Positions 2,143 to 19,832 of a stretch of 64,000 nt of DNA are shown here, piece by piece; positions within the stretch are counted from its first letter, which is position 1, and every line of letters begins with the position of its first letter. The stretch covers positions 246 to 64,245 of the forward strand of contig DATCDU010000020.1 in NCBI GenBank assembly GCA_036510525.1, in the 5' to 3' direction. The translations under genes were made by a program, and so were the position numbers. The notes under the pieces were generated by a model, which saw only the letters and a list, made by a program, of their open reading frames with translations, did no database searches and was not told the DNA's origin. Source of the DNA: Minisyncoccota bacterium (GTDB lineage Bacteria > Patescibacteriota > Minisyncoccia > UBA6257 > 2-01-FULL-56-20).

Positions 2143-4827
2143 ATGGAGCTGACAATCACAAAAAGAGACGGAACAAAAGAACCATTCAACGCGGATAAGA
2201 TCAACCGCTCCATCGAACGCGCATGCGCGGGACTGCAGGATCCCATCGGTATGGTGACACAGATCGCCACGGAGACGCGACTGACGCTCTATGATGGCAT
2301 CACGACGGAAGAAATGGACCAGGCGACGATCAACGCCGCCGTGCAGAACATAAAAGAGGATATCGAGTACGATAAAGTCGCCGTGCGATTGCTTTTGAAG
2401 ACCATTTATAGAAAAGTCGTCGGCGATTACGAGGATAATGTGGAAATTTTGCGAAAGAAACATCGCGACGGTTTCGCCGCGTGGGTAAAGAAGGGGGTCG
2501 CGGACGGAATTCTCGATCCGCGCATGGCGGAGAAGTTCGACTTGAAGGATCTCGCGAGCGCGCTCGATATCCGTCGCGATGAATTGTTCGTCTACAGCGG
2601 ACTCTCGACCGTCCTTCATCGCTACTCCATCAAGGACGTGAAGAACGATCCCGCGGAGACGCCGCAATATCTTTTCATGCGCATCGCGATGGGACTTTCG
2701 TTCAACGAAAAAGATCCGACGCTCTGGGCAAAACGTTTCTATCAGAAGATGTCGCAGATGAAGTACATCGCCGGCGGTTCCACGAATCTTGGCGCGGGCA
2801 CCACGCGTCCGTCGCTCTCGAATTGTTTCCTTCTTCAGATCGAGGATGACATGGAGCACATCGCAAAATCCGTCGGCGACGTGATGATGCTCTCCAAGGC
2901 ATCGGGCGGCATCGGCGCGAACGTCACGAAGTTGCGCGCGACGGGCTCCCCTCTTAAATCGAACAACACTCCTTCGAGCGGTCCGACGCCGTTCGCAAAA
3001 ATAATAGACACGGCGATCCGTGCCGTGCAACGCGGCGGAAAGAAAAAAGGCGCGCTCTGCTTCTATATGGAAAACTGGCACATCGACTTCCCCGAATTTT
3101 TGGATTGGAAGCACAACGCCGGCGATGACTATATGCGCATGCGCACCGCCGACACCGCGGCATTCATCTCCGACGAGTTCATGAACCGCGTCGCGAACCG
3201 AGATTTCTGGTACATGTTCGACCCGAAGGAAACGCCGGACCTGATCGAGCTTTACGGCAAGGAATTCAGCACGCGCTACGCGGAATATGTGGAAATGGCT
3301 GAAAAGGGCCAGTTCCGGGTGTTCAAGAAGGTCCCTGCGGAGGAATTATATAGACAGATGCTCGGCGCCCTACAGGCGACAGGCCATCCGTGGCTCACGT
3401 GGAAGGATCCGATGAACCTTCGTGCTTTGAATAACAATACCGGCACGATCCATATGTCCAACCTCTGCACGGAGATCTGCCTTCCGCAGGACCGCGAGAA
3501 CATCGCCGTCTGCAATCTCGCCTCGCTCAATCTCGCGAGCCACGTACACAACAAACAGATCGACTGGGAAAACCTGGAAGAGAGCATTCGCTTCGCTATC
3601 CACCAGCTTGATAACTTGATCGACATCAACGTGCTCCCCATCGCAGAAGCGCAGCACTCGGATCAGGAGAATCGCGCGATCGGATTGGGGGTGATGGGAT
3701 TCTCCGACATGCTCGAGCAGGTCGGACTTTCGTACGAGAGCGAGCACGCGCACAACTTCGCGGACAAGGTGTTCGAGTTCGTGAGCTACGTCGCGATCGA
3801 CGAGAGCGCAAACCTCGCGGCAGAGCGCGGAAGCTATAATAATTTTCAGGGATCCGGATGGTCGAAAGGCATGGTGCCGATCGACACGATCAAGACATTG
3901 GAAGACGGCCGCGGTATGACGCTTACCGTCGCGAAGGAACACCGCTATCGCGGATTGAACTGGGACGCGCTCCGCGAAAAAGTGAAGAAAGGAATGCGCA
4001 ACGCGACGCTCATGGCCACCGCGCCGAACGCCAACATCGGGCTCGTCGCCGGCACGACGCCGGGCATCGATCCCCGCTTCGCGCAGGTGTTCTCGCGCAA
4101 TAAGATCTCCGGAAAATATCTGGACCTCAATCACAACCTGGTGAACGATCTCAAGAACATGGGCATCTGGGAAAAAACAAAAGAGCGGATCATCGCCGAC
4201 CAGGGAGACATCTCCGCGATCGACGAGATCCCGCAGCACATCCGCGATATCTATAAGACATCGTTCAGCACGTCGCCGTACGCATTCATCGAAGTGGCCG
4301 CGCGCGCGCAGAAGTGGATGGACCAGTCGCTCTCGCGCAACATGTACCTCGAGACGCGCGACATCGGCGAGATGATGGACATTTATGCGACCGCGTGGAA
4401 GAAAGGGTTGAAGTCCACGTACTACCTGCACATGAAGCCGCGCCACACTGCGGAGCAGTCGACGGTGCGCGTGAACAAAGCGGAGCAGATGGGCAAGCGT
4501 GGATTCGCCGCGGTGATGGAAGCGGCCGCCGAAGCGCCGGTGACGGAATCAGTGGAGGTGACCGTGGCACAACCGGCAGCGCAGCCCTTTGCCGTCGTGG
4601 AGGCCGTCGCATCCTTCGTGAGCGCGCCGGTTACGGCAAGCACCGCGGAAGCCCATACTACGACGACCCCTATCGAGGCAATGCCCGTAAAGGCAGAGAT
4701 GCACATGCATGACGCCTTGGAACCCCATACCCATTCCGTAGCCCAGGGCTCATCCCCCGCCAACGCCCCGCGCATCATGCCGCCGAGCGATCCGATGGAG
4801 CAGTTCATCTGCGACAGCTGCCAGTAG
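2143..4827 (+). CDS. nrdA: Ribonucleoside-diphosphate reductase alpha subunit (class Ia), with an Ala/Pro-rich C-terminal linker before the CxxC tail
   Basis: N-terminal ATP-cone (KRDGTKEPFNADKINRSIERA), active-site NxCxE region (SNLCTEI), C-terminal FICDSCQ redox tail; 894 aa. Confidence 0.95.
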   Translation: MELTITKRDGTKEPFNADKINRSIERACAGLQDPIGMVTQIATETRLTLYDGITTEEMDQATINAAVQNIKEDIEYDKVAVRLLLKTIYRKVVGDYEDNVEILRKKHRDGFAAWVKKGVADGILDPRMAEKFDLKDLASALDIRRDELFVYSGLSTVLHRYSIKDVKNDPAETPQYLFMRIAMGLSFNEKDPTLWAKRFYQKMSQMKYIAGGSTNLGAGTTRPSLSNCFLLQIEDDMEHIAKSVGDVMMLSKASGGIGANVTKLRATGSPLKSNNTPSSGPTPFAKIIDTAIRAVQRGGKKKGALCFYMENWHIDFPEFLDWKHNAGDDYMRMRTADTAAFISDEFMNRVANRDFWYMFDPKETPDLIELYGKEFSTRYAEYVEMAEKGQFRVFKKVPAEELYRQMLGALQATGHPWLTWKDPMNLRALNNNTGTIHMSNLCTEICLPQDRENIAVCNLASLNLASHVHNKQIDWENLEESIRFAIHQLDNLIDINVLPIAEAQHSDQENRAIGLGVMGFSDMLEQVGLSYESEHAHNFADKVFEFVSYVAIDESANLAAERGSYNNFQGSGWSKGMVPIDTIKTLEDGRGMTLTVAKEHRYRGLNWDALREKVKKGMRNATLMATAPNANIGLVAGTTPGIDPRFAQVFSRNKISGKYLDLNHNLVNDLKNMGIWEKTKERIIADQGDISAIDEIPQHIRDIYKTSFSTSPYAFIEVAARAQKWMDQSLSRNMYLETRDIGEMMDIYATAWKKGLKSTYYLHMKPRHTAEQSTVRVNKAEQMGKRGFAAVMEAAAEAPVTESVEVTVAQPAAQPFAVVEAVASFVSAPVTASTAEAHTTTTPIEAMPVKAEMHMHDALEPHTHSVAQGSSPANAPRIMPPSDPMEQFICDSCQ

Positions 4828-5977: not shown

Positions 5978-6973
5978 ATGTTGATCGGCAAAGCATCCCC
6001 GGAGGATATGAACCTCCACCCAATTCAATATCAGTGGGCATACGACCTCTATCAACAGGCGGTACGCAACACGTGGTTCCCTCACGAGATCGCGCTCAAG
6101 GAAGACCTCTATGATTGGGAGAAGATGACGGAGGACGAACGCCACGCGGTGAAGTTCCTGATGGCATTCTTCAATCCGGGCGAGCTCATCGTCAACCGCT
6201 CGATTGCGCTCGGCATCTATCCTTATTTGAAGTCGCCGGAGTGCCATCTCTACCTTGCGAAGCAGATGTGGGAAGAAGCAAATCACTGCGTTGCCTTTGA
6301 ATACGTTTTGGAAACATTCCCGCTTGATCGCACGAACGTGTTCAACCTGCACCTCGACACGCCGTCGATGAAAGCCAAGGAAGATTACATCAATAAGTAC
6401 ATGCGCCGCATGACGGAAGACACGCTTGACGTCGAGACGCCGGAGGGCAAGAAAGATTTCATCCGCAACCTCGTGGCGACGAACATCGTGATGGAGGGCA
6501 TCTGGTTCTACAGCGGCTTCATGGTGGTGCTCTCGTTCCGCCAACGCAACCAGCTCCGCAACTTCGGCTCAATGATCAACTGGGTGATCCGCGACGAATC
6601 GCTCCACCTCAAGTTCGGCATGAACCTCATTCAGAATATTTTAGAAGAGAATGCCGAATTGCTCACGAAAGAATTTGCGAACGAGATCAAACAGATCGTG
6701 ATCGACGGTGTGGACCTTGAGGTGGCCTACAACAAAGATCTTTTCCCGCGTGGCATCCTCGGCCTGAATGCCGACTATGTGAACCAGTACGTGCAGTACG
6801 TCGCCGACCGGCGCCTGGAAGAGCTCGGCATCGGCCCGCACTACGGCGCGAAGAATCCCGCTAAGTGGATGGCGGGCGCGACCGACGTCCTCGAGCTCGT
6901 CAATTTCTTCGAGGCGCAGAACACGTCGTACGAAGTGGACAGCCACGCCGCCGATAAAAAGAAGGAAGCATAA
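5978..6973 (+). CDS. nrdB: Ribonucleoside-diphosphate reductase beta subunit (class Ia)
   Basis: Ferritin-like di-iron R2 motifs (..WEEANHCVAFEY..; ..DESLHLKF..); 331 aa. Confidence 0.95.
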   Translation: MLIGKASPEDMNLHPIQYQWAYDLYQQAVRNTWFPHEIALKEDLYDWEKMTEDERHAVKFLMAFFNPGELIVNRSIALGIYPYLKSPECHLYLAKQMWEEANHCVAFEYVLETFPLDRTNVFNLHLDTPSMKAKEDYINKYMRRMTEDTLDVETPEGKKDFIRNLVATNIVMEGIWFYSGFMVVLSFRQRNQLRNFGSMINWVIRDESLHLKFGMNLIQNILEENAELLTKEFANEIKQIVIDGVDLEVAYNKDLFPRGILGLNADYVNQYVQYVADRRLEELGIGPHYGAKNPAKWMAGATDVLELVNFFEAQNTSYEVDSHAADKKKEA

Positions 6974-7036
6974 CAATAAAAACAGCCTCTCGCCTCCAGG
7001 CAGATGACCGTTCGGCGAGAGGCTGTTTTTATTGTT
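6972..7036. repeat. Family-A palindromic element copy 1 (23-bp perfect arms, conserved 19-nt core TCCAGGCAGATGACCGTTC); doubles as the nrdB terminator
   Basis: Arms aacaataaaaacagcctctcgcc (6972-6994) and ggcgagaggctgtttttattgtt (7014-7036); the left arm starts inside the TAA stop codon; the core is identical to the one at 56976-56994. Confidence 0.65.
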
Positions 7037-7056: not shown

Positions 7057-7725
7057 ATGAATCTGAAGAATATCCTTATCACGTTGTCCATCGTCGCGGT
7101 GGTGATTGTATGCGTGGCGTTCTACGTCGTGTTCTATAGCGGCGGAGGGACGTACGTCGTGAGCTCTCTCACCGGCCCGAATGCGGACATCTTTGGCGCG
7201 GGGACCGAAAATACCAGCACCTTGGGCGCAAGCTCGACCGCCAGCTCTACGGCGTTCGCGTCGTCATCCGCGCTTGACGACACCGGCGCGTCCTCTTCCG
7301 CAAGTTCCACCGCCTCATCGTCGCTTACGACCACACCGGGCAACACGACGGTCGTCTCGTGGACCCAGGGCAATGAGGCGCTTTTGATCACCGGCGCCCT
7401 GATCTCGGGCGATCAGCTCACACTCGGCGTCCAGGTGGCGATGGGCAGCGTCAGCGAATGCGTGCCGCTTAACCTCCGCCTGATCGCCGACGAACAGGGC
7501 GATCTTTCGCCACCGATCACATCGCAGTTCACCTTTCCGGACACCGGCACCTGCAACGGTACCGCGGGCGAGACCTACAGCGCCCAGCCGATCGTCTTCA
7601 CGCTCAGCGATCCCAGCGCCTTCCCCATCGTCCTCACGACTGGCGGCACGGCCAACATCCTCTTTGAGGTCGTGCAGGATCCCGACGGCAGGCTGAGCGC
7701 CCAACTGCCGCCGAGCTCGGATTAA
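7057..7725 (+). CDS. Membrane-anchored Ser/Thr-rich hypothetical protein
   Basis: N-terminal TM helix (ILITLSIVAVVIVCVAFYVVF), low-complexity S/T/A region; 222 aa. Confidence 0.5.
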   Translation: MNLKNILITLSIVAVVIVCVAFYVVFYSGGGTYVVSSLTGPNADIFGAGTENTSTLGASSTASSTAFASSSALDDTGASSSASSTASSSLTTTPGNTTVVSWTQGNEALLITGALISGDQLTLGVQVAMGSVSECVPLNLRLIADEQGDLSPPITSQFTFPDTGTCNGTAGETYSAQPIVFTLSDPSAFPIVLTTGGTANILFEVVQDPDGRLSAQLPPSSD

Positions 7726-7791
7726 AAATTGATTAAATGACCGCTATTGAAAATCCACCCCCGTCTGCTACAATAGTATTCGTATTGTAAT

Positions 7792-8072
7792 TCCGCGATA
7801 GCTCAATGGTAGAGCGGCGCCCTGTCAGCAAGGCAGCTCGCATCGGAAACGGTGCGATGATAAAAATCTTGGGATAACGGTGAATGCTAAGTCCGCAAGG
7901 ATATGCGAATACCGTGGGAACCCTCCGCACGGGAGGGGCACCGTAGAGACTAGATACCGAGATGCCTAACACCCGCAATGGGCGGGTCATGGCAATGATA
8001 TAGTCCACGCCTCTTGGAAACATTAGGAAACGTGTAAGGCGATGGTTCCAGGTTCGAGTCCTGGTCGCGGAG
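7792..8072 (+). tRNA. tRNA-Asn(GUU) interrupted by a group I intron in the anticodon loop (alternative reading Thr-UGU)
   Basis: 5' exon TCCGCGA-TA-GCTC-AATGGTA-GAGC-G-GCGCC-CTGT (7792-7825); 3' exon TAA-GGCGA-TGGTT-CCAGG-TTCGAGT-CCTGG-TCGCGGA-G (8035-8072). Spliced product has anticodon loop CUGUUAA, U1-A72 and G73 as in E. coli tRNA-Asn. Confidence 0.75.
7826..8034 (+). ncRNA. Group I self-splicing intron (~209 nt) in tRNA-Asn
   Basis: Contains group I conserved R element GTAGAGACTAGA (ccgtagagactagatacc) and S element GATATAGTCC; 5' exon ends in U; intron ends in G before the 3' exon. Confidence 0.7.
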
Positions 8073-8138
8073 CAGTCAATATCTTTTATCGGACAGACCG
8101 AGAGGCATCGATTTTTGCTATCTTTTTTGATGCTAAAA

Positions 8139-8162
8139 GTTCGAGTCCTACTCCTATGGCAT
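8139..8162 (+). repeat. Degenerate second copy of the tRNA-Asn 3' end (T-loop and acceptor-like)
   Basis: gttcgagtcct identical to 8052-8062; continues ...actcctatggca versus the native ...ggtcgcggagca. Confidence 0.45.
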
Positions 8163-8309
8163 CTAGGACACCGAACTCAGCGCTTTAACTTGAATTTAAG
8201 TCGCGGAATTTTAATTGACATTTATATTAAAATATGTTTTACTCACACTAGCTACTCACAACTGAAAACTAGGTTGGAGAGGTGGCAAATTTCTGAAAGG
8301 AGATAGCGC

Positions 8310-8858
8310 ATGAACTTCTTTGTTTGTATCGAAGGTGTCGATTGTGTCGGAAAAACCTCCGTTGCTGAATTGCTAGCCAGCCGGGTCAACGCTGTCTACT
8401 ATAAAAGTCCCGGCGGCATGTATGCTAAGGAACGAAAGATCGTAGATGGATCGATTGAACCTTTGCGACGGTATTTCTTTTACCGGGCGGCTACCCAGTA
8501 CGACTCGGGGATTATTGGCGGATTACTCAAACATTCGCCCGTTGTCTGCGATAGGTATATCTATTCAACCTTTGCCATGCACGCGGCAATGGACGAAAAG
8601 ATCCGATCTCTCTTTGAAATCACTGGCCTCGTCATGCCGGACTACGTTTTTCTTTTGACCGCCGATGAGGCGATCCGAAGAAAACGTCTAGCCGAACGCT
8701 TCGATGCCACGACGCTGGAAAGCAATTTTCTGCTTCAGAAAAAGGCAGATGAACTTTTCAAGCTTCAAGGACATCCAACCATCGATACGACAAATACAAA
8801 TGTCGATGAAGTGGTTGAAACAATCTTGTCTCGCTTGCGAGAGAAAGGATCGATATGA
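8310..8858 (+). CDS. Thymidylate-kinase-family P-loop dNMP kinase
   Basis: IEGVDCVGKTS P-loop and CDRYIYST (DRY/DRF motif); 182 aa; ATGA overlap with the next gene (translational coupling). Confidence 0.6.
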   Translation: MNFFVCIEGVDCVGKTSVAELLASRVNAVYYKSPGGMYAKERKIVDGSIEPLRRYFFYRAATQYDSGIIGGLLKHSPVVCDRYIYSTFAMHAAMDEKIRSLFEITGLVMPDYVFLLTADEAIRRKRLAERFDATTLESNFLLQKKADELFKLQGHPTIDTTNTNVDEVVETILSRLREKGSI

Positions 8859-9592
8859 CGCTACGCAGCCCACTGTGGTACGAGAGATTCTTCAAGATTG
8901 CGCTTCTCGAAAGAAAAGAGAAGGCGCAGGCCGTTGCCAGGATGCTGCAAGAAATTGCGCAACCCGGCAACTTGAGAACAATGTTCGATGAATTCTTGTA
9001 TGAAGTGACCACGTCGGTTCACCAAAACACGGATTCATACACCCACGACAATGGCTTCGACAAAATCGTCCTCTTTGAGGATGATAAGACCAAACTGAAG
9101 ATGCGGCTGCATATTTGGCACCCGCTTCTCATTCCTGGTGCCAAACGGCCGCGGCAGAATGTTCACAACCATCGCTGGGACTTCGGCTCTGTCATCTTAC
9201 TCGGACATGCCGACCACCTTACCTACCAGTTCGCCAAACAAAATAGTGAGGGTGAAGAATTCTTCCATTATCGCTATTACGCCCGAGGCAGCAAAGAGCA
9301 CTACGAACTCGAAGAACTCGGGAAAGCCAAGTTAGTGTGCCTTGGAAGCGAACGTTTCGAAGCAGGTCAACTTTACTACATCGACAACGAAGTTCTGCAC
9401 CGCGTGGACATCGATGACAATATCGCGGTGGCGACCCTCATCATCACGCATGAAAACGTTGGCTGGATCACGAACGACCTGCTTTCTGAAAAGAGCATGG
9501 GGTTTGAAAAGGTCCGACTCCAATCTCCCGCCATGGCCAGAGAGCAAATCGTCTCCAAGGTCACGGCATTGCGCGAGTTGCTCCACATCTAA
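8855..9592 (+). CDS. Cupin-fold protein with cysteine-dioxygenase/ADO-like metal-site pattern
   Basis: IPGAKRPRQNVHNHRWDFGSVILLGHADHLTYQF aligns by eye to the CDO PG..S.IHDH....F.K.L.G...E..F region; 245 aa; function inferred only. Confidence 0.4.
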   Translation: MTLRSPLWYERFFKIALLERKEKAQAVARMLQEIAQPGNLRTMFDEFLYEVTTSVHQNTDSYTHDNGFDKIVLFEDDKTKLKMRLHIWHPLLIPGAKRPRQNVHNHRWDFGSVILLGHADHLTYQFAKQNSEGEEFFHYRYYARGSKEHYELEELGKAKLVCLGSERFEAGQLYYIDNEVLHRVDIDDNIAVATLIITHENVGWITNDLLSEKSMGFEKVRLQSPAMAREQIVSKVTALRELLHI

Positions 9593-9604
9593 CAAGGAGG
9601 ATGT

Positions 9605-10114
9605 ATGGCAAGAATCTACGTAAGCGAGGAACGGCTGAAAAAACTTCAGCGGGAACTCGAAGACGCCCATGCTGGCCTCAGTGGATTGCGTAAGGAAAAG
9701 AATCTTGCGTACACCGCTACTGGCGACACGTGGCATGACAACCCCTACTTCAACAAATTAACTCAAGACGAGGAAACGCTGGCTCGGAAGATCGCCGAAA
9801 TCCAGCAAACTATCTCCGAAGCCGAAATCTACAATCCATCCGTACGGAACATCGAACAGGTTCGGCTAGGCTCGATCGTACGCTTCGCGCGACGTTATAA
9901 AAATAACAGCGAAGAGACGGACGAGACCTGGGAGATTGTCGGATTTGGCGAAACCGATGTACCCCAGAATCGCGTCGCATACAATGCTCCACTTGGAGCT
10001 GCGCTGATCGGCATGGGGCCAGGCGATACCAAGCAAGCGACGACGCCTAAAGGTGCTGTTGAGTATGAAGTCATCGATCTGTATCCCGACTGGGATGCGG
10101 TGCCGAAAAAATAA
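9605..10114 (+). CDS. greA: GreA/GreB-family transcript cleavage factor
   Basis: N-terminal coiled coil (EERLKKLQRELEDA), C-terminal FKBP-like domain (...SPLGAALIGMGPGDTKQATTPKGAVEYEVIDL); 169 aa. Confidence 0.6.
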   Translation: MARIYVSEERLKKLQRELEDAHAGLSGLRKEKNLAYTATGDTWHDNPYFNKLTQDEETLARKIAEIQQTISEAEIYNPSVRNIEQVRLGSIVRFARRYKNNSEETDETWEIVGFGETDVPQNRVAYNAPLGAALIGMGPGDTKQATTPKGAVEYEVIDLYPDWDAVPKK

Positions 10115-10200
10115 TAGAATTTGGTTTTGAAGACTCAATCTATGGTCGTTCCTCTTTAAAGGGAGCGGCCATTTTTTTGTGATATCATAAAGATTAACCG

Positions 10201-10875
10201 ATGATAAAAGGCATCATATTCGACTTTGACGGCGTCCTGATTGATTCTGAACACATCAATATTACTGCTGGTATTCAAGCGTTCAAGGAATTTGGTTACG
10301 ACTTATCCAACGCCGACAAAAAATTAATACCGGGCCAGCATTCTGAGAACGTCATATCGCAGATTCTGAAATTGCGAGGATTAGATCTGCCGAAAGAAGC
10401 CTTACGAGAACAATACAGTAAAGCGTACGGGGATATGTGGGAAGATGCAGTTACCGTTATGCCGCAGGCGAAGGAGACATTGCAACGACTAAAGAGCGGT
10501 GGAATCACGCTCGGCCTCGCGACCAATAATTATAGATCGCGGGTCGAAACCTTCCTTAAACAAACCGAGCTCGGAAACATTTTCTCCGTGATCGTAAGCG
10601 GCGAAGATGTAGCGAAGAGGAAACCCGATCCGGAAGTTTATGTAAGAGCAAAGATAAAATTAGGTCTTCCCGACGAGTCAATTCTCGCTATCGAAGACGG
10701 AGCAGTCGGCCTTGCATCGGCAAAGGGTGCGGGACTCCGATGCGCAATCATTCTCAATCAATACAGCGCGGGCCAAGATTTCTCAAATGCGGACTTCGTG
10801 TTTAAATCCCTGGCGGAACTCATAAACCACCTCAGCGAGAATAAACTGATGGATAAAATTTTTTTACCAGCTTAG
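10201..10875 (+). CDS. HAD-superfamily hydrolase (beta-phosphoglucomutase-like subfamily)
   Basis: DxD motif (MIKGIIFDFDGVLIDSE), later K and DD motifs (AIEDGAVG). Confidence 0.8.
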   Translation: MIKGIIFDFDGVLIDSEHINITAGIQAFKEFGYDLSNADKKLIPGQHSENVISQILKLRGLDLPKEALREQYSKAYGDMWEDAVTVMPQAKETLQRLKSGGITLGLATNNYRSRVETFLKQTELGNIFSVIVSGEDVAKRKPDPEVYVRAKIKLGLPDESILAIEDGAVGLASAKGAGLRCAIILNQYSAGQDFSNADFVFKSLAELINHLSENKLMDKIFLPA

Positions 10876-11353
10876 GGAGATCGCTTTTTGATTTGTCGCC
10901 AGTCGCCAATTTTTTAAGAAGTTCTTCTGGTGTGAGCCAATAGTATTCAATGAAATCGCTTTTATTGAAATTTGGAATCGAATCGGATTTTATCTCGTAC
11001 ACATTCATGAAAGCGGACACGCCGTCTTTGTTAGGACTTAGATGCCCAAGGAGCGGATGTGGTGTGGCTTCAGCATTTAAGCCAAGCTCTTCCTCTAATT
11101 CTCTTCCGAATGCTTCTTCATAACTTTCACCGGACGAGACATGCCCCCCCATGCTCATATCAAGGCCAAGCGGGAAAAGACGTTTATTAGCAGCTCGACG
11201 GGGAATCCATATTTTCCCCTCGGAGTTCACAATAAAAGCATTCACGACTCGAAAATTACTTAATCCCTCGGCATAGACTTCTGAGCGCGGTTTTGAGCCA
11301 ACGACCTGATCATTTTCATCCACCAAATCCAAAATTTCTTCGGCGCTAGACAT
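10832..11353 (-). CDS. NUDIX hydrolase
   Basis: Nudix box GGHVSSGESYEEAFGRELEEELGL. Confidence 0.8.
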   Translation of the reverse strand: MSSAEEILDLVDENDQVVGSKPRSEVYAEGLSNFRVVNAFIVNSEGKIWIPRRAANKRLFPLGLDMSMGGHVSSGESYEEAFGRELEEELGLNAEATPHPLLGHLSPNKDGVSAFMNVYEIKSDSIPNFNKSDFIEYYWLTPEELLKKLATGDKSKSDLPKLVKKFYPSVYSR

Positions 11354-11572
11354 TTTTATTTTAAAAATTTTATTCCTATATTTTATCCGGAGGAGTTTCC
11401 TTTCTCACAATTTTATAAAAATATATTCCCTTCGTTCGCCTACTCAATGTACCATTATATATGTATATTTCAAGTGTGCAGCTCAAAAACCTGACCCCAC
11501 TGAGACTCGAACCGGATTTTCAACAAAATCGAAAACAAAAAGTGAGGTTTTTTAATGCTTTTTTGAAACTAG

Positions 11573-11629
11573 TTCGAGTCGAAGTGCCGGAGCAGTCTAG
11601 TTTTAGTATCGGACAGACCGAGGGGCGTC
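11573..11629 (+). repeat. Partial duplicate of the tRNA-Asn 3' end plus downstream 45 nt (attR-like remnant)
   Basis: ttcgagtc-gaag-tgccgga-g-ca-gtctagttttagtatcggacagaccgaggggcgtc aligns with 8053-8109; an inverted, more degenerate copy of the T-loop/acceptor segment lies at 11491-11515. Confidence 0.5.
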
Positions 11630-11630
11630 A

Positions 11631-11664
11631 GTGAAATCCCCGTTCACAGGAACGGGGATTTCAC
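11631..11664. terminator. 15-bp perfect hairpin downstream of dcm (bidirectional terminator candidate)
   Basis: gtgaaatccccgttc-acag-gaacggggatttcac; no clean U-run. Confidence 0.35.
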
Positions 11665-11697
11665 GTTCTGCATGCCCTATATTTAACACCAAGGGGA

Positions 11698-12810
11698 TTA
11701 GGCGAAATATCTCTTAAATTGCTTTGCCCACGCCTCGGCAAGTAAAGGAGGAACAGCATTGCCCACCTGGGCATAATAATTTCTCTTATTGGACGAAGAA
11801 AGGCGGAACCAATCCGGGAATGATTGTATCCGCATGCCCTCCCGTATGGTTATCAAGCGATCAGCGGAATAATGGATGTTGCAACCGACATTCGGTCTAT
11901 TGAAATGGGTGTTCAACGTATAAGGCGTCCGATTGGGATGCAATCTTCCATAGGTAGTCGTACGGCCACCAGTTTTTTTGAAGTTCATGATCCTCTTCGT
12001 CGCTATAGAATCTGGAACGTCCATGTAGTTGCCACCGGGTTTCACTGCTTTAATGATTTCCTTATCCTTGGCACTGGCATACGGCGGGTAATGATGATAA
12101 ACCCCCCGAGATCCAATTCTCATCTTCTCTTGAAATTCACTTGATGGCTTTGAACGATACTGGAGTGGTTCATTGGAGGATGGGCGCGGCAAATCAGATA
12201 GAGCTTCCTTCGCGGTCACCCACTTTTTTAATCCATCGCCGCCATCTTCACTATGGGTAGGTTTAGGCAGTGGTATCTTCAAGCCCGAAGAAGTGCCGAT
12301 AATAAATACCCGCCTGCGTCTTTGCGGAACGCCGTAATCGGCGGCATTCAAAACGTGCGTCTCTATCCTGTAACCAGCAGCACCAAATGCCTCGCGGAGG
12401 TCGTCAATGACAGACTCACCTCTTTCATTTTCCGCCGAACGGAGACCGAGAACGTTTTCGAATAGGAATGCAGCTGGCCTAACTGCCTTCAAGACATCTA
12501 AGTAGTTCCACACAAGGCGGCTTCTAATGTCATCGGATTTGCGTTTACCAACAAGGGAAAAGGATTGGCATGGAGGACCGCCAATAACTAAATCGGCTTT
12601 CGGTATGCTTTTGAAATTCACGCCCCCTATGTCGGCACACAACGTATCAGCTTTAAAATTATTTCTGAAGGTTGTGCAAAAATCTTCAACGACATCATTG
12701 GCCCAGAGAACCTTAAATCCTTGTTCGTGAAAGCCGAGGTCTAAGCCGCCGCATCCAGAGAATAAGCTGACAATCGTTGGTTTAGCCATTTTGGTTTGAT
12801 CTGTCATCAA
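11698..12810 (-). CDS. dcm: DNA cytosine-5 methyltransferase
   Basis: Motif I FSGCGGLDLGF, motif IV GGPPCQSFS, motif VI FLFENV; 370 aa. Confidence 0.9.
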   Translation of the reverse strand: MMTDQTKMAKPTIVSLFSGCGGLDLGFHEQGFKVLWANDVVEDFCTTFRNNFKADTLCADIGGVNFKSIPKADLVIGGPPCQSFSLVGKRKSDDIRSRLVWNYLDVLKAVRPAAFLFENVLGLRSAENERGESVIDDLREAFGAAGYRIETHVLNAADYGVPQRRRRVFIIGTSSGLKIPLPKPTHSEDGGDGLKKWVTAKEALSDLPRPSSNEPLQYRSKPSSEFQEKMRIGSRGVYHHYPPYASAKDKEIIKAVKPGGNYMDVPDSIATKRIMNFKKTGGRTTTYGRLHPNRTPYTLNTHFNRPNVGCNIHYSADRLITIREGMRIQSFPDWFRLSSSNKRNYYAQVGNAVPPLLAEAWAKQFKRYFA

Positions 12811-14348
12811 CTAGATCTTTCAAGAACAACTCAGCGAAGTCGGCCAATTTCGCATTGTTTTCAAATCCACCGATTCCATGATTGATTAATACCGAAGCCA
12901 TCGCTAGATCTAAATCTCGCCTTGGAGTTTCTATTCCTTCGTCACCCTTGACGCTCTCGCCTAAAGCATCGAACTGTTCGAGCGCGGCGCACAACGAATC
13001 AACCTCTTCGGATTTAAGTTCGTCGGGATCAATGGATTTCATCCCTCTCACCATGAAAGCTTCTATTTTTAGCATGCCCTCTTGGTTACCACCCTCGAGT
13101 TCGAACTGTAATTGACCGAAAGCGGACATAAGGTATGACGCTATCACCTTCAAAGATTTGTCGTTACCAAACTTGCGACGCAACAGTCCGCTCGTATAAC
13201 AAAAATTCGTCGATAGTAAAATTCCCTGCTCAGGCGATGCTACATAAATCGCATGCTTTTCCCTAGCTGCCCGGGGGATCAATAATTCCGCCTTTACCTT
13301 GCTGTGGTATGCCGCGTCGACGACCTTCTTCCATTTAGCACGCCCGATGCGTGCCTGCGCTTCCAGAAAAAGCTTGCCAAGGCCGGTGTTTTGGAACACT
13401 TTAAGAGATGATGGCATCGACATCATTTTCTATTGCACGCTTCAGATGTTCGCCATCCTGGTTGCTTAAGAATTTTTCCATCAAAATCACACCTGCACGT
13501 CCTCGCTCCTTCAAATAGTGCCCTATCCAATCCATAAAATAGAAATAAAGGTTCGGCTGCTTCGCCTCCTCCACAATCGTTTTCCCACCATTCGCGGACT
13601 TGAGCGCCTTAATCATGGCTTGTTTGCGGCTGTCAGGTATTGGGTTCTCCGGATCGTCGTTTCGTAGAAAAGGTGGATTCATCAGCACGGCGTTAAATTG
13701 TGCCGGACGCGGATTTGAGAATACGTCCCCGTTAATGAAGTCGATTTCCGTAGAGCTGTCTACTGCATTTAGATTCTTGGCAAGTAACCGGAATGCTGCA
13801 AGCTGGTTTCCGGTCGGCGCTTGGCCCGGCCAGAGTCCCATCTCGACCCGCGTTCTGAGTCCCCGCTTCACATTCACGCTCTTATTATCGTTCTCCAGTT
13901 TTGCCTGCGAGCATAAGATCATCAGCAGAAATTTATCGCTGGGCGAATTCTTGAATCCCTGCCCGAACGTTTTTATCTCCACCAATGATTTTTGATCCAT
14001 CAGGTCCACAAGTGCCCCGAGGTCGCCCGCGTTCCTGCTCAGCCGGTCCGGCGCCCACGTGAGAATACCGTTGAACCGCGCCGCCTTCAGATCATTCACT
14101 ATTTCATTGAAGACCGGACGCTGGTTGGAATCTTTTGCCGAATGGGACTCCCGCCGGATATCGGCGACTTCCAGCCCTTCCCGCTCGGCGATCTGGAGCA
14201 TCTCCTTAACCTGCGAATCGATGGACAGCACCTGCTTCTCCTCGCTTTCGCTCGATTTCCGCGCGTAGAGCACGTATTTGACCTTTATTGGCACCTGCAC
14301 CGCTATTTGGGTTCCGCTCCCCGGCGACCCCATGGTTTGGTTTGTCAT
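12782..14348 (-). pseudogene. Chimeric, frameshifted remnant: large-serine-recombinase catalytic domain fused in frame to a gamma-class N6-adenine MTase (HsdM-like) that lacks motif I
   Basis: ORF 13401-14348 has resolvase N-terminus (YARKSSESEEKQVLSIDSQ...DRLSRN...GLWPGQAPTG), then the MTase motif IV region (IDFINGDVFSNPRPAQFNAVLMNPPF...GRAGVILMEKFL...VDAIIS). ORF 12782-13426 continues the MTase in another frame (LPSSLKVFQNTGLG...). No FxGxG AdoMet motif anywhere. Confidence 0.55.
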
Positions 14349-14435
14349 ACATCAATGAATGACGCACCTCTCCTGGCAAGTCCAGACCTCACTACAAGGC
14401 GACGAAGTTACCCATTTGCCTAGTTAGATACGATC

Positions 14436-15002
14436 CTAAGCCGTTGGAAGAGCCTTTGGCGGATCAAACTTGCACCGCTCGCCATTCACTAGGCCGAAAC
14501 CGGTGAGATGGATAAAGAACAGGTCCCAATCGTCGCCGCCATCGGTCGTACTCACGCATTCGTCGTTGATGTACTTTGTTGCGCTATACTTTTTATCTTT
14601 GTCGTCGTAGCCGATTATGAGATGACAATTGTCTCCGTAGACGTTGCGATATCTCATGCAGCTCAAATAGCCATCTTTTTTGTAAGTATGGAATTCCGGT
14701 TCATAGAGAGCGCTACCGGTTACCTGTCGCCCATTGTCAATCCGTGTGCCCATATAGAGGACATTGAAGGGAAAGCGGTTCAGCTCTGGATTCCAGGAAA
14801 TCTCCAAACGCTGCGGCACGAAAGCGAATCTCGTTTTTGCGTCTTTCTTGAGTATTGCTTTTTCTTCTTTGTTAAATTGTCTCATAAAATTGCGAAACCC
14901 TGCCGCGAGGCAGGGATGATAAATGTTTGCTTCGACCTTTATCTTTCCCTTGCGGGCTGGATGTAGCACCGTATCGTTTCCGATTGGTTGCCGGTGGGTC
15001 AT
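14436..15002 (-). CDS. Hypothetical protein (188 aa), no recognisable domain
   Basis: ORF only; low-GC island context. Confidence 0.4.
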   Translation of the reverse strand: MTHRQPIGNDTVLHPARKGKIKVEANIYHPCLAAGFRNFMRQFNKEEKAILKKDAKTRFAFVPQRLEISWNPELNRFPFNVLYMGTRIDNGRQVTGSALYEPEFHTYKKDGYLSCMRYRNVYGDNCHLIIGYDDKDKKYSATKYINDECVSTTDGGDDWDLFFIHLTGFGLVNGERCKFDPPKALPTA

Positions 15003-15194
15003 TGAGCCAGTGCTCTCGCCACACTCTTGATAACTATTCAGTTGTGCTTACCATTCCATTCTAGCAAATGCTTCAAACAATACAAGCGACTTTCTCCGGT
15101 GTAAGCTTCATTTTTCCCGACCCAATGTATCTTGTATTGTTTCGCATCGCGCGGCCGATCGACGAGAAGACGAGGCGTGAAGTCGTGTATCAGT

Positions 15195-16236: not shown

Positions 16237-17415
16237 TTATTCCCCATAGCGTTTTTTGTCCTCAGTTATCCTCTTTTCGAGGTCTTCTTTCTTCGGATAG
16301 AAATACATATCATCCAAAAACTTGAAATACTTCGGATCATCAAGGCTCTCGAAAATCGGCATCGAGTGTCTCGGCGCATCGATCGCAAATTCTTTCATCT
16401 GGGACACGAGCGCTTTTTGATAGGGACTTACTCTTTTGTATCCATCTTTTAGACGATTGTTTTCTATCCTTTCCAATAAATCTCGCATTGAATCATCGGT
16501 CAAGAATTTTATGTTCGGTCCGTCCTCATTATTCTGCCCGTAGGATTTGAGGAGGTATTCCCGTATCCATATGCCAAGCGATACGCGCGTACGGAGTGCG
16601 AGCACTGCTTTGTGGTTTGGATATCGACTTTCCCATAAGTTCTTCCCTCGGTCGTCAATCAACGGATAGGCCCGAAATATACCTTGAATCTTTCCAGTGA
16701 GAATCTCGAGACGGAGCCGCAAAATAAATGAGTCCCGATTCATTGTGGGATCACCCCAGTAATGCGACAGGAGATTCCCAAGAACAATGACCTTCGTATC
16801 CGCATTTCCAAGCGGGAGTATCTCACTTTCAAACCATTGCCCAAGCGCCGCAGCAAGCGTTCGGTCTTCCACTGACACGCTGTCTTCGAGATCGTCACAA
16901 ATAATGAGATCCGGCCGGTACTGGTTGTGCTTTAACCCTCGCACCCGTTGGTCGCGGGAGATGGAGAGAATTTTCGCGCCACAGTAATCGAGCTCAAGCG
17001 ACAATCGATTCCATGCGGCCTCGTTTTCTGTGAACGGACCGAAATCTTCCCTAAGCGCCTCATTGCCTTCGAGTTCTGCTTTAATATTCAAGAAGTGGTT
17101 CTTTGCCTGCTCTTGGGTATTGCTTACGATGATCACGAATTTCTTCCCCGGCTTGCCGAGGATAGACCAGAGAACATTTGCCATATTCATGATTGTCGAT
17201 TTGCCGGATTCGCGGAATGCCATCACGACCACAAAGTTGTATTTCTCTTCCTGGATCAAATGAAACATCTCCATATGGAAGGCTGCCAGCGGAGCGCTCA
17301 AATGATGACGCAGATACAATAAGGTGAACCAAAACGGGCTTTCGTATGCAAGCCGCTGACGTACCCGTTTATTTCCCCGTATCTTTTCGAGTTCGTTTGC
17401 GGTGATCTTTTTCAT
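16237..17415 (-). CDS. Phage terminase large subunit
   Basis: Walker A-like AFRESGKST, Walker B LIICDDLED, C-terminal nuclease-like region; 392 aa. Confidence 0.8.
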   Translation of the reverse strand: MKKITANELEKIRGNKRVRQRLAYESPFWFTLLYLRHHLSAPLAAFHMEMFHLIQEEKYNFVVVMAFRESGKSTIMNMANVLWSILGKPGKKFVIIVSNTQEQAKNHFLNIKAELEGNEALREDFGPFTENEAAWNRLSLELDYCGAKILSISRDQRVRGLKHNQYRPDLIICDDLEDSVSVEDRTLAAALGQWFESEILPLGNADTKVIVLGNLLSHYWGDPTMNRDSFILRLRLEILTGKIQGIFRAYPLIDDRGKNLWESRYPNHKAVLALRTRVSLGIWIREYLLKSYGQNNEDGPNIKFLTDDSMRDLLERIENNRLKDGYKRVSPYQKALVSQMKEFAIDAPRHSMPIFESLDDPKYFKFLDDMYFYPKKEDLEKRITEDKKRYGE

Positions 17416-17827
17416 TGGTTTTTCCTGCGGCGAGGTTCAGAGCGTCAAGCACCAGTTTTTCTTCTTCGGGAGAAAGCTCGTCCGCCGATGCGATAGGAAC
17501 GTACGGCTGACTCTTCGAACCGTACCGCGCGTGATGGTGCTTCAGCCACAACGTAATCGCCGGCATCTTTTTTTCTTTGATGAGCGCGATGAGTTGCGTT
17601 TCGCTCATGTCATTCACGAATTCGATGCCGCGATCCATGGCATCCCGACTTTGCCGCATGAAGTCCTTGTCCTCCTGCCGCCAGCGATAGTACGTAGCAG
17701 AACTCACTCCCGCGCGTTTGCACGCCACGGTGATGACAGGCATCTCTTTCAAGAATTCGACGAGCCCTTGTTTATTGTCGTCCCGCCGCTCTATAACCGA
17801 GGGATTCTCCGCCGGATTAACAGGCAT
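17369..17827 (-). CDS. Phage terminase small subunit-like HTH protein
   Basis: HTH (ACKRAGVSSATYYRWRQ) directly upstream of, and overlapping, terL. Confidence 0.55.
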   Translation of the reverse strand: MPVNPAENPSVIERRDDNKQGLVEFLKEMPVITVACKRAGVSSATYYRWRQEDKDFMRQSRDAMDRGIEFVNDMSETQLIALIKEKKMPAITLWLKHHHARYGSKSQPYVPIASADELSPEEEKLVLDALNLAAGKTNEKDHRKRTRKDTGK

Positions 17828-17923: not shown

Positions 17924-18004
17924 GCATCCCCTCCTCCGACCGACCCCTCTGGGACGCCCATGAAACCTCGCTACACGGGATTCAAGTCCGAGGTGGGGAG
18001 CAAA
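17924..18004 (+). repeat. ~80-bp direct repeat, copy A
   Basis: gcatcccctcctccgaccgacccctctgggacgcccatgaaacctcgctacacgggattcaagtccgaggtggggagcaaa; ~90% identical to 19067-19151; 3' part resembles a tRNA T-loop/acceptor end (ttcaagtcc...ggagca). Confidence 0.6.
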
Positions 18005-18033: not shown

Positions 18034-18105
18034 GATGCGGTAGCCAAGTGGTTAAGGCATTTGTCTGCAAAGCAAATCTCGTAGGTTCGACTCCTACCCG
18101 CATCT
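18034..18105 (+). tRNA. tRNA-Cys(GCA)
   Basis: GATGCGG-TA-GCCA-AGTGGTTA-AGGC-A-TTTGT-CTGCAAA-GCAAA-TCTCG-TAGGT-TCGACTC-CTACC-CGCATC-T; clean cloverleaf. Confidence 0.85.
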
Positions 18106-18106
18106 C

Positions 18107-19066: not shown

Positions 19067-19151
19067 TGCATCGTTCCCCTCCACCGACCGACCCTCTGGG
19101 ACGCCCACGAAACCTCGCTCCATGGGATTCAAGTCCGAGGTGGGGAGCAAA
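19067..19151 (+). repeat. ~80-bp direct repeat, copy B (ends in the SD of the EEP gene)
   Basis: Aligns with 17924-18004; ends ...ggtggggagcaaag immediately before the ATG at 19153. Confidence 0.6.
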
Positions 19152-19739: not shown

Positions 19740-19832
19740 TCCTCTCTTTAAATAAGTTCGAACACTTTCCACGATTCGGAGTAGTCACTGATATAAGTTT
19801 ACGGACGGAATTTTAATTGATATACTGAACCC

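Follow-up and report, generated by a model that had tools for sequence, protein, structure and literature searches.

A probable genomic islet without a recombinase at a tRNA-Asn integration hot spot in a Paceibacteria bacterium

Copies of the 3′ end of a tRNA-Asn gene bracket five genes in the genome of a tiny, uncultured Paceibacteria (CPR) bacterium (Patescibacteria). A first-pass annotation of the whole stretch of DNA analysed here (64,000 nucleotides, hereafter the window) read the region as the result of repeated site-specific integrations at one tRNA and later loss of the integrase, and listed a direct repeat, a degenerate copy of the tRNA end, an inverted copy and a hairpin. All four are indeed present, and the arrangement of the window is found again in separate assemblies.

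The tRNA-Asn(GTT) gene is not the plain intact gene that had been annotated: a 209-nt group I intron (7826-8034, plus strand) splits it between anticodon positions 35 and 36. Exon 1 (7792-7825, plus strand) stops after anticodon position 35, and exon 2 (8035-8073, plus strand) does not encode CCA. Joined, the exons (7792-7825 + 8035-8073) give a 73-nt tRNA-Asn(gtt) in ARAGORN; the unspliced gene was missed by ARAGORN and by Rfam at the gathering threshold. The intron is matched by RF00028 at 7834-8027, with E = 1.3e-4 and a score of 26 bits where the gathering score is 50. The intron is variable among relatives: it is present in L011 and L088 and absent from L008-L010, L089 and L091, and in the intron-less orthologues (L008, L009, L010, L089 and L091) the equivalent of 7825 is joined directly to that of 8035. 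tRNA group I introns of the same class have already been published (PMC13011429). The tRNA and its trailer occur as in the window in L011, L088, L089, L091 and L100, and the trailer motif is not found behind the four other tRNAs of the window.

The proximal, attL-like repeat (8052-8109, plus strand) is made of the T-loop, the 3′ strands of the T-stem and acceptor, and a 36-nt trailer with TATCGGACAGACCGAG. The distal, attR-like copy (copy (ii), 11572-11629, plus strand) aligns to it without gaps at a spacing of 3520 and is identical at 45 of 58 nt, which agrees with the imperfect direct repeat of the tRNA 3′ end that had been described. When 200 first-order Markov 64-kb sequences were searched on both strands with the 58-mer, the best match had a mean of 30.4 and a maximum of 33, versus the 45 observed. 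Identity is blockwise, with GTTCGAGTC (9/9), GGAGCAGTC (9/9) and TATCGGACAGACCGAG (16/16) fully conserved and the divergence located in the T-stem/acceptor part and a 12-nt spacer. The 9-mer GTTCGAGTC occurs five times in the window, four of them in the repeat region (chance expectation 0.63; five occurrences were reached in 0/100 shuffles). The degenerate copy (copy (i), 8139-8162) has the exact 11-mer GTTCGAGTCCT in common with tRNA-Asn and matches it at 16/23 positions overall, being marginally closer to the 3′ end of tRNA-Cys (18034-18106; 17/23). The inverted copy (copy (iii), 11491-11515), which agrees with the tRNA 3′ end at 15/25 positions, has GTTCGAGTC at 11504-11512 on the minus strand.

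The annotation had treated these copies as serially decayed. They are not decay products private to this genome: copy (i), and copies (iii) and (ii) together, are conserved flank modules common to relatives. The left flank module (8110-8213, plus strand) consists of a T-rich leader and copy (i) (8135-8177), and ends in 36 nt that are unique to this genome and include GTCGCGGA (8200-8207). Copy (i) and the tRNA trailer are conserved through window position 8177, at 95% in L089 and 90% in L090; in L011 they are part of a longer tract that matches window 7438-8176 at 75%. The left module is present in L095 too, where the comparison beyond window 8124 was by eye only. The right flank module (11491-11571, plus strand) is formed by copy (iii) and an AT-rich spacer. 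Copies (iii) and (ii) make up a sharply bounded module of ~135 nt that is 87-91% identical in L092, L095 and L103, where it adjoins quite different genes and keeps a sharp left edge. The leader CTTTTTTGAnnCTA followed by GTTCGAGTC is common to the left flank module and the distal module. Beyond the distal copy lies the perfect 15-bp hairpin (11631-11664; two 15-nt arms, 100% complementary, and a 4-nt loop), 33 nt past the stop codon of a convergent C5-methylase gene, with a folding energy of -29.7 kcal/mol (z = -8.3). No T-run follows it on either strand, and it is therefore not a canonical intrinsic terminator. L095 and L096 have hairpins of other sequence at the same position behind the repeat core.

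The cargo block (8214-11491) begins with a promoter and leader, followed by five genes, whose domains were matched in Pfam, NCBIfam, PHROGs and PADLOC: a dTMP-kinase-like gene (8310-8858, plus strand), a cupin-like protein of 245 aa (8855-9592, plus strand), a GreA/Rnk-like gene (9605-10114, plus strand), a HAD phosphatase (10201-10875, plus strand) in an extra 668-nt segment (10182-10849), and a Nudix hydrolase (10832-11353, minus strand). None of the five ORFs has a recombinase domain, so 8.1-11.6 kb is free of an integrase, as annotated. The 80 NrdB-anchored loci lack all five genes. The GC content of 8214-11491 is 0.466, versus 0.539 in the left flank and 0.543 in the right. The DNA between the repeats is thus lower in GC, as had been noted for these 3.4 kb (~0.47 vs ~0.54), but low GC is not confined to them: the tract runs from ~8.1 to 19.8 kb.

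Relatives with 92-96% identical NrdB keep the order nrdA-nrdB-p222-tRNA-Asn and differ immediately downstream. In L009, an intact element of ~9 kb with a large serine recombinase (LSR) is inserted precisely at the 3′ end of the tRNA. Its recombinase, a Resolvase+Recombinase+Zn-ribbon protein, abuts the tRNA; the far end, ~9 kb off, reads ...CCATTCT|GCGGAGCAGTCAACATTTAGTATCGGACAGACCGAG, where the native trailer resumes. The crossover lies within GCGGAGC and the duplication is only 7 bp. This insertion is the one certain serine-recombinase event.

A search of the relatives for an empty attB returned one: the metagenome contig L088 links window position 8106 to 14393 via only 43 nt, which cannot be traced in the window. 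The matches on either side are 89.6% (L088 1465-1858 to window 7720-8106) and 92.6% (L088 1902-2103 to window 14393-14594). The relatives therefore do not present one shared gene order with no empty site anywhere, and the variable DNA downstream of tRNA-Asn together with this site bears out the annotated integration hot spot and the 3.5 kb as inserted DNA. The extent of the unit is different from that proposed, since the DNA absent from L088 covers 6,286 bp (8107-14392) and not 8.1-11.6 kb. Homology to the L011 recombinase element ends at the same right edge (14392). We found no excised circle and no exact empty site for the 3.5-kb unit by itself.

To the right of the distal repeat is the remnant of a serine-recombinase element (11698-14348, minus strand). 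It encodes, all on the minus strand and with matches in Pfam and PADLOC, a C5 DNA methylase (11698-12810), a BpuSI-type specificity-domain ORF (12782-13426) and a chimeric ORF (13401-14348) in which recombinase residues 1-180 are fused to an Eco57I-type methylase fragment. Over these residues, identity to the L011 recombinase (447 aa) is 87%. In the sister strain L109, DNA with 91.6% identity to window 14663-13805 runs on into an intact recombinase; the gene is intact at the same place in both L011 and L109. The annotated absence of an integrase thus holds inside 8.1-11.6 kb but not 1.8 kb to the right, where this truncated gene lies. No tyrosine-recombinase box emerged from a rough motif scan of the window, nor did any of the loci examined show a tyrosine integrase; three scans of viral contigs gave no matching attP.

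Further right, the outermost att-like unit (19755-19823, plus strand) marks the right edge of the low-GC tract, and conserved host DNA resumes at ~19826. It belongs to the units that are 5 nt longer between the T-loop-like motif and GGAG; its GTTCGAACACTTTCCACGATTCGGAG matches units of L101 and L090 at 23-24/26 positions, with a unit-profile nhmmer E of only 0.15. A 78-nt element ending in GGATTCAAGTCCGAGGTGGGGAGCA (17927-18004, plus strand) has a second, 95% identical copy at 19075-19151, and the pair brackets tRNA-Cys and a 314-aa ORF. This element, which has no Rfam match, is also found in L092, L095 and, with a tRNA-Asn-type trailer behind it, L099.

The operon of dTMP-kinase-like, cupin-like and GreA-like genes recurs after tRNA-His in L104 and after tRNA-Gln in L111. 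Window 8214-10181 and 10850-11491 are ~80% identical to L104 7363-9930, which is without the HAD segment; the final 74 nt of the match (11418-11491) are only 72% identical. In L104, T-loop-anchored tRNA-His repeats bracket the operon: three occurrences of the tRNA-His T-loop 9-mer were counted against 0.30 expected, one within the tRNA, one inverted and one direct, and the trailer repeat keeps the same register. In L111 the operon is bracketed by a 58-nt tRNA-Gln repeat, 55/58 identical, with a second copy at 44/58. Neither these two islets, the young L111 copy included, nor the 5-8 kb examined around each contain a recombinase, which makes the annotated later loss of the integrase doubtful and movement in trans the likelier course. 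The operon lies directly downstream of a tRNA in 3/8 genomes; in four others it sits among housekeeping genes with no tRNA, and is therefore not always mobile cargo.

We consider it probable that a recombinase-less 3.5-kb islet in a multi-slot tRNA-Asn hot spot has the two 58-nt copies as its left and right attachment sites. As shown by comparison of the loci, the attachment sequence runs from the tRNA T-loop to ~36 nt past its 3′ end; DNA inserted here leaves an undamaged tRNA on its left and, on its right, a further copy of that sequence that is not functional. Relative to L088, the window holds two adjacent insertions. The first is the islet (8110-11571), with conserved flank modules of ~70-100 nt per side and a cargo of nucleotide-related enzymes and a GreA-like factor; the second is the LSR element remnant with its restriction-modification genes (about 11630-14392). 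Older att-like units extend up to 19.8 kb, and so the site was used repeatedly.

The islet probably moved in trans rather than losing an integrase, and would then resemble a cis-mobilizable element served by a recombinase encoded elsewhere. The leading candidate for the mover would be a large serine recombinase of the hot-spot kind; a tyrosine integrase specific for the tRNA, or RecA acting on the two repeats, could also have been responsible. T-loop-anchored repeats of 58 nt are typical of tyrosine integrases. With an identity of only 78% between the window copies, either the insertion happened long ago or the distal copy was inherited as a module and did not arise from it.

A doubtful alternative is tandem accretion by serine recombinases, on the model of SCC or the Dehalococcoides ssrA islands, in which all tRNA-end-like units are LSR attachment sites with a crossover in GGAGCA, the 5-nt-longer units are attP-derived half-sites joined to the host trailer (attR), and the islet is a recombinase-less member of the array. 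Serine recombinases are the only ones seen at the hot spot (L009, L011, L109 and the window remnant), their family is very large in CPR (1471 matches), and the best NCBIfam name for the remnant is CcrB. The L009 crossover inside GCGGAGC would fit such a mechanism, but duplications of 7 bp there and 20 bp in Dehalococcoides compare poorly with a 58-nt repeat. The blockwise conservation of the repeat, with two outer motifs and a central GGAGCAGTC, is likewise in keeping with it, as is the series of units in L101 (three full units 1.1-1.5 kb apart and, at 4050, a fourth left arm without trailer). MAFFT separates two classes of unit, which differ by a 5-nt indel separating the T-loop-like motif from GGAGCA; this is the displacement of the zinc-ribbon-domain motif that Rutherford et al. 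(2013, PMC3783163) reported for attP relative to attB. However, the spacing in the two window copies is tRNA-like (attB-type) on either side, which is not expected of a serine attL/attR pair, and several of the 5-nt-longer units adjoin ordinary-looking genes rather than recognisable elements. Recombinase-less islands have a precedent in the Dehalococcoides analogue (PMC3146451), but the absence of a recombinase within 5-8 kb of the tRNA-His and tRNA-Gln islets argues against accretion.

We give similarly limited credence to replacement of cargo, in which the tRNA trailer with copy (i), and copies (iii) and (ii), are old, vertically inherited flanks of one slot, and the five genes replaced an ancestral ABC-transporter pair by flank recombination after DNA uptake; the repeat would then not record the arrival of the five-gene cargo. 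L095 has both modules around this pair, L092 (its contig starting inside the pair) has the pair and then immediately the window-type right module, and L011 has the left module, the pair and then its intact recombinase. The pair is orthologous between L010 and L011 at 91-92%, a divergence similar to that of NrdB, and is absent from the window. The homology between window and L104 ends exactly at the inner module edges, 8214 and 11491, and the two window copies are less alike (78%) than are the flank modules between genomes (87-95%). As the modules hold different cargo in relatives, homologous replacement explains the window equally well as fresh integration. It leaves unexplained, however, the origin of the flanking repeat and the bracketing of the operon by the repeats of two other tRNAs, one pair being 95% identical; furthermore, the flanks in L104 are of tRNA-His type and not tRNA-Asn type, and so no homologous flanks are evident in a known donor.

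It is very improbable that the copies, instead of being recombination sites, are relics of duplicated tRNAs or functional tRNA-like RNA elements (processing or termination signals) in ordinary chromosome. Their conservation in relatives, the small hairpin formed by the trailer (TCGG-ACAGA-CCGA), the hairpin behind the distal copy and possible co-transcription of the operon with the tRNA speak for this reading. Against it, similarity begins only in the T-loop and does not reach the tRNA 5′ end, which prevents the copies from folding as a T-arm, the distal module shows no significant folding (z = -2.2), the trailer motif is restricted to tRNA-Asn among the window's tRNAs, the units are missing from ~75 more distant relatives and the whole block from L088, composition is atypical, and recombinase genes or remnants lie at the boundaries.

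Among known systems, the islet resembles classical tRNA-gene islands and islets in adjoining a tRNA, in having a distal direct repeat that spans the tRNA 3′ end from the T-loop onwards, in its GC below that of the flanks, in its absence from close relatives and in the repeated use of the site. Unlike these, the islet and its tRNA-His and tRNA-Gln counterparts have no integrase, the repeat reaches 36 nt past the tRNA with its best-conserved block outside the gene, and no tyrosine integrase was seen in the loci examined here. The ssrA islands of Dehalococcoides have serine recombinases and tandem islands, the recombinase-less members of which were read as cis-mobilizable (McMurdie et al. 2011, PMC3146451). 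The present locus shares with them tandem insertions downstream of one small-RNA gene (here tRNA-Asn), bounded by 3′-end repeats, and with staphylococcal SCC composite islands a tandem arrangement bounded by the repeat of a gene 3′ end (rlmH in SCC). As in both, the CcrB-like LSR of L009 adjoins attL on the reverse strand, and ParB-like genes lie near (in L011 and L104). In contrast to both, a tRNA of a CPR bacterium is targeted, the repeat has a length of 58 nt versus 15-20 bp, the window recombinase is truncated, and the role of a serine recombinase in moving the 3.5-kb islet is only putative.

Like the CIMEs of Streptococcus ICESt1/ICESt3, the islet has att-like bounds, no recombination or transfer genes, a tandem partner element and conserved ends around variable cargo, but no parental element with the islet's ends and an integrase was found, and mobilization here is putative. 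Integron cassette arrays have similarly short cassettes of one to a few genes between recurring ~60-nt units (as in L101), with the same flanks around different cargo; here, however, there is no IntI-type tyrosine recombinase and no attI, and the units mimic tRNA 3′ ends rather than attC-type imperfect palindromes.

Because it lies between two copies of the tRNA-Asn end, where relatives have other inserts or nothing, the 3.5-kb five-gene block can be classed as an ordinary tRNA-linked genomic islet, whose one unusual trait is that it lacks its own recombinase. In this genome, it is probably now fixed.

The window carries a canonical 73-nt tRNA-Asn(GTT) gene, called by ARAGORN on the joined exons 7792-7825 and 8035-8073, which neither ARAGORN nor Rfam at its gathering threshold reported in the window itself. 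Standard tRNA finders miss it because of its intron: the intervening 209 nt (7826-8034) match the RF00028 group I model weakly (26 bits, E = 1.3e-4). Intron-less orthologues in relatives fuse exactly 7825 to 8035, which places the intron between anticodon positions 35 and 36. Among the related loci, L011 and L088 have the intron, and L008-L010, L089 and L091 lack it; this intron class has already been described in Patescibacteria (PMC13011429).

The tRNA gene stays intact at the edge of a five-gene islet, and inserted DNA starts after 8106-8109. The segment 8052-8109, which runs from the T-loop into the trailer past the tRNA 3' end, recurs at 11572-11629 as an ungapped 58-nt direct repeat with 45/58 identical positions; none of 200 simulated 64-kb sequences matched this 58-mer at more than 33/58. 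The 9-mer GTTCGAGTC has five copies in the window against a chance expectation of 0.63, and four of them lie here (8052, 8139, 11504 on the minus strand and 11572). A hairpin with two perfect 15-nt arms at 11631-11664 (-29.7 kcal/mol, z = -8.3) is followed by no T-run, and GC content is 0.466 in 8214-11491 vs 0.54 in either flank. The four features of the first-pass annotation (the degenerate copy, the direct repeat, the inverted copy and the perfect hairpin) thus hold, as does the lower GC. By sequence comparison, the T-loop-to-trailer segment of the tRNA is demonstrably duplicated at the far end of inserted DNA. The trailer is not the general 3' flank of this genome's tRNAs: It is missing at tRNA-Cys, -Ser, -Ile and -Val. 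An assembly artefact is ruled out, as independently deposited ENA and JGI assemblies have contigs with the same arrangement.

Of the five islet ORFs, one encodes a dTMP-kinase-like P-loop protein that scores under the TIGR00041 cut-off, and another a 245-aa protein whose cupin/cysteine-dioxygenase-like PHROG matches are weak; the remaining three encode a GreA/Rnk-like protein, a HAD phosphatase and a Nudix hydrolase. Domain searches found no recombinase domain in any of them. The gene for the HAD phosphatase is part of a 668-nt segment (10182-10849) directly preceded by a terminator-like hairpin (10142-10172); the segment is missing from the otherwise collinear cargo blocks of three homologous loci (L104, L105 and L106) and is a secondary insertion within the islet.

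Relatives were found with NrdB, encoded 1 kb left of tRNA-Asn. This returned 80 loci, almost all of which carry a Patescibacteria/CPR label (Paceibacteria and allies), and all five cargo genes are absent from every one. The five closest (NrdB identity 92-96%) all keep nrdA-nrdB-p222, followed by tRNA-Asn in four and by no tRNA in L007; downstream they have nothing in common with the window except a recombinase N-terminus in L011. Of the four, L008 ends inside the tRNA, and L009, L010 and L011 carry other DNA at the islet position. L009 is a complete 0.88-Mb chromosome, whose intron-less tRNA-Asn is abutted by a Resolvase + Recombinase + zinc-ribbon protein, a large serine recombinase; the native trailer resumes ~9 kb on, at ...CCATTCT|GCGGAGCAGTCAACATTTAGTATCGGACAGACCGAG, and the duplication is GCGGAGC only. 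L011 has the intron-bearing tRNA, the trailer and a tRNA-like copy, then an ABC-transporter pair and a 447-aa serine recombinase. L010 has unrelated DNA after the tRNA, and the same ABC pair 4 kb away. The comparison shows that each relative has a different occupant at this site, which in L009 is used by a serine recombinase element.

Scanning metagenome contigs with the pattern GGAGCA-N10-13-TATCGGACAGACCGAG gave 17 loci. One of these, L088, matches 7720-8106 at 89.6% and, after 43 nt, 14393-14594 at 92.6%; 6,286 bp of the window (8107-14392) are therefore absent from it. The outcome that would have spoken for a fixed region, the same order and repeats everywhere and no empty site, is thus not what the relatives display. 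None of the relatives compared has an exact empty site that corresponds to 8110-11629 only, and a search of the window for the origin of the 43 nt, made to place the left junction of the neighbouring recombinase element, gave no trace.

Homology to the L011 recombinase element ends at 14390-14392, which coincides with the right edge of the DNA missing from L088 and lies 44 nt outside the start codon of an ORF at 13401-14348 on the minus strand. This ORF is an in-frame chimera with a breakpoint at ~13805-13809: residues 1-180 are serine recombinase, 87% identical to that of L011, and the rest is an Eco57I/type IIG methylase fragment. In the sister strain L109, which shares 91.6% DNA identity over 14663-13805, the recombinase is intact past the breakpoint, so the window gene results from a recent deletion or fusion. 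Downstream of the chimera, at lower coordinates on the minus strand, domain matches identify a BpuSI-type specificity-domain ORF and a C5 methylase. The segment 11630-14392 is therefore the remnant of a serine-recombinase element with restriction-modification genes, and the 3,520-bp repeat-to-repeat island is a separate unit to its left. The initial statement that the region has no integrase stands for the islet but overlooks this truncated recombinase gene, the nearest one to the islet, which lies outside the repeats at the far edge of the neighbouring element. Beyond that edge (14436-15036, minus strand), a SAM riboswitch (RF00162, 58 bits) precedes a 188-aa ORF that Pfam, PHROG, PADLOC and NCBIfam all fail to match; the ORF directly adjoins tRNA-Asn in L088.

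The sequences flanking the islet are shared with relatives. On the left, the trailer plus the tRNA-like copy at 8139-8162 continue to 8177 in L089 (95%) and L090 (90%) and lie within a 75% match of L011 to 7438-8176; L095 also has both, compared by eye only beyond 8124. On the right, the inverted copy (11491-11515) and the distal repeat form a single ~135-nt module (11491-11629) that L092, L095 and L103 share at 87-91% identity; its edges are sharp and adjoin different genes. As a structured RNA this module is unconvincing (z = -2.2), with no compensatory changes in four aligned copies. In L095 an ABC-transporter pair lies between the left and right modules; L092, whose contig begins within the pair, displays the pair and then the right module only. 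L010 and L011 carry orthologous pairs and the window has none, so the flanks are shared while the cargo differs. Serine-recombinase elements use the same tRNA (L009) or adjoin the distal module (L011, L109 and the window), and none shares the flank modules. The extra copies had been taken for private decay products, but they are conserved in relatives at 87-95% (75% in the longer tract of L011). The copy at 8139-8162 has a T-rich leader in common with the distal repeat and matches the tRNA-Cys 3' end at 17/23 positions vs 16/23 for tRNA-Asn; it is best read as an older decayed unit that the whole sub-clade inherited.

We find the cargo operon beside other tRNA genes as well. The 245-aa protein has only ~60 homologues. 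In L104 a block 80% identical in DNA to 8214-10181 plus 10850-11491 (72% over the last 74 nt, 11418-11491), without the HAD segment, follows tRNA-His. The T-loop 9-mer of that tRNA, GTCCGATTC, occurs three times in L104 (expected 0.30): once within the tRNA itself, once inverted (9941) and once direct (9976), with a trailer repeat in the same register. Just outside the distal tRNA-His repeat, the start of the L104 GreA-like gene is duplicated exactly over at least 159 nt (8739-8897 and 10242-10400, 1.5 kb downstream). In L111 the operon follows tRNA-Gln and is bracketed by a 58-nt T-loop-to-trailer repeat with 55/58 identical positions; a second copy matches at 44/58. That second copy (7644-7701) has CCCGACAGGG in place of CCCTGTCGGG, so that the centre of a quasi-palindrome is switched exactly to its reverse complement. 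No recombinase was found in the L111 islet or within 5 kb, and the tRNA-His and tRNA-Gln islets, like that of the window, lack recombination and transfer genes. Four other genomes have the operon among housekeeping genes with no tRNA. Three of the eight operon contexts are thus directly downstream of a tRNA, each with repeats of the local tRNA that start in the T-loop. This is far above chance positioning, and no other evidence speaks as strongly for the window repeat as a mark of recombination.

The low-GC tract extends from 8.1 to 19.8 kb, and together with the DNA missing from L088 this makes the inserted DNA larger than the first-pass annotation proposed. Aligned units of T-loop motif, GGAGCA and trailer motif fall into two classes, one with tRNA-like spacing, to which both window repeat copies belong, and one in which the T-loop-like motif and GGAGCA stand 5 nt further apart. 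A unit of the longer class (19755-19823) forms the right edge of the tract, and conserved host DNA resumes at ~19826. An 18-nt repeat, CGGAATTTTAATTGAYAT (8204 and 19806), was considered as the edges of one large island, but its 17/18 identity is within chance for AT-rich DNA and it is better read as a piece of the degenerate trailer of this unit. Longer units also occur in L090, L096 and L101; in L101 (2184-4890), three full ones follow one another at intervals of 1.1-1.5 kb, separated by one or two ORFs in a cassette-like array, and a further left arm, at 4050, has no trailer, all arms lying within 2.7 kb. Units are not present in ~75 more distant relatives. A second direct repeat, a 78-nt element ending ...GGGGAGCA (17927-18004 and 19075-19151, 95% identical), brackets tRNA-Cys (18034-18106) and a 314-aa ORF without family match; its second copy is the 5' leader of an ORF starting at 19153. 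The element's end resembles a tRNA 3' end (..GGATTCAAGTCCGAGGTGGGGAGCA), and it recurs in L092, L095 and L099, followed in L099 by a tRNA-Asn-type trailer; it has no Rfam match, and its folding is not significant (z = -1.4). At 16237-17827, on the minus strand, a terminase large-subunit fragment (phrog_38 positions 254-452 of 760) and a small-terminase/HTH ORF are a prophage remnant. From the units, the 78-nt pair and the terminase fragments, the whole 8.1-19.8 kb tract is therefore a stack of element remnants. Outside it, a 23-bp perfect terminator-like hairpin after nrdB (6972-7036) shares an identical 29-35 nt stretch with 56966-57000, next to tRNA-Ser, and with L101 7825-7859.

The empty site and the differing occupants bear out the proposed integration hot spot and island, whose details of integrase loss, private decay and extent need correcting. 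The islet has an intact tRNA at its edge, a distal repeat of the tRNA 3' segment and no counterpart in close relatives, as do tRNA-linked integrative islands, but unlike them it encodes no integrase next to the att site. Its att-like bounds and its lack of recombination and transfer genes resemble a cis-mobilizable element (CIME). We infer that the islet, rather than having later lost its integrase, was probably inserted in the manner of such elements, by site-specific recombination with a recombinase made elsewhere.

Homologous recombination that swapped cargo between inherited flanks explains the window equally well, but leaves the origin of the repeats unexplained. If the islet moved by site-specific recombination in trans, a serine recombinase is one candidate: It is the only recombinase kind seen at these loci, the 5-nt difference between the two spacing classes resembles how the zinc-ribbon motif is displaced from attB to attP (PMC3783163), and the Dehalococcoides ssrA islands are a close published analogue (PMC3146451). 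The arrangement of ssrA-GI and SCC islands, a large serine recombinase at the island edge by the target gene, is seen in L009; what the window has is a truncated gene at the far edge of the neighbouring element. However, both window copies have tRNA-like spacing, whereas the attL/attR of such islands would be attB/attP hybrids whose outer motif is displaced outwards by 5 bp on the attP half, and the repeat is 58 nt long. The trailer contains, at 11601-11609, the 9-mer TTTAGTATC, also found in units of L089, L091, L092, L095 and L009 and reported as the zinc-ribbon-domain recognition motif of a Listeria A118-family serine integrase (PMC3783163). This match is a lead only and may be coincidence; the way it is oriented would suit a crossover where the 16-nt core ends, but a matching right half-site is absent. 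Three scans of viral contigs (trailer pattern, 5-nt-longer arm, distal-module spacer) gave 0 matches each. Long T-loop-anchored repeats, such as that of the window, fit tyrosine integrases, and an enzyme of this kind is the other candidate; a rough motif scan found none, which is weak evidence and applies to the window only. The locus does not resemble an integron: the units are not attC-like, a rough six-frame scan of the window found no tyrosine-recombinase box II motif, and no IntI gene is among the annotated ORFs.

A broader reading, to which we give little credence, is that the units (T-loop motif, GGAGCA and TATCGGACAGACCGAG trailer) could be the recombination sites of a Paceibacteria cassette system, in which large serine recombinases acting in trans would insert, stack and swap short recombinase-less cassettes, alike in their arms but interchangeable in cargo, at tRNA genes. 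The L101 unit array, the ABC pair and five-gene block between the same arms and the operon at three tRNAs are consistent with it. If true, genomes that are otherwise regarded as poor in mobile elements would have a tRNA-anchored analogue of integron-like gene capture that works with serine recombinases.

The islet itself is of a known type, a tRNA-linked islet in tandem with other elements, and is of moderate interest for its CPR host and for a recombinase-less family seen at three different tRNAs. Island callers anchored on tRNA annotations would overlook it, since standard finders miss its tRNA-Asn. In three genomes the operon lies between repeats of three different tRNAs, of which one pair is 95% identical, which makes it a testable case of movement in trans; its sites and the candidate recombinases (of the L009, L011 and L109 types) are sufficiently defined for recombination to be assayed in vitro. 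How Patescibacteria, with their very small genomes, gain genes is poorly understood. This locus offers a concrete route: One tRNA gene has been used repeatedly as a landing site, and at tRNA-Asn a recombinase-less islet and a decayed serine-recombinase/restriction-modification element are stacked, with phage terminase remnants behind.
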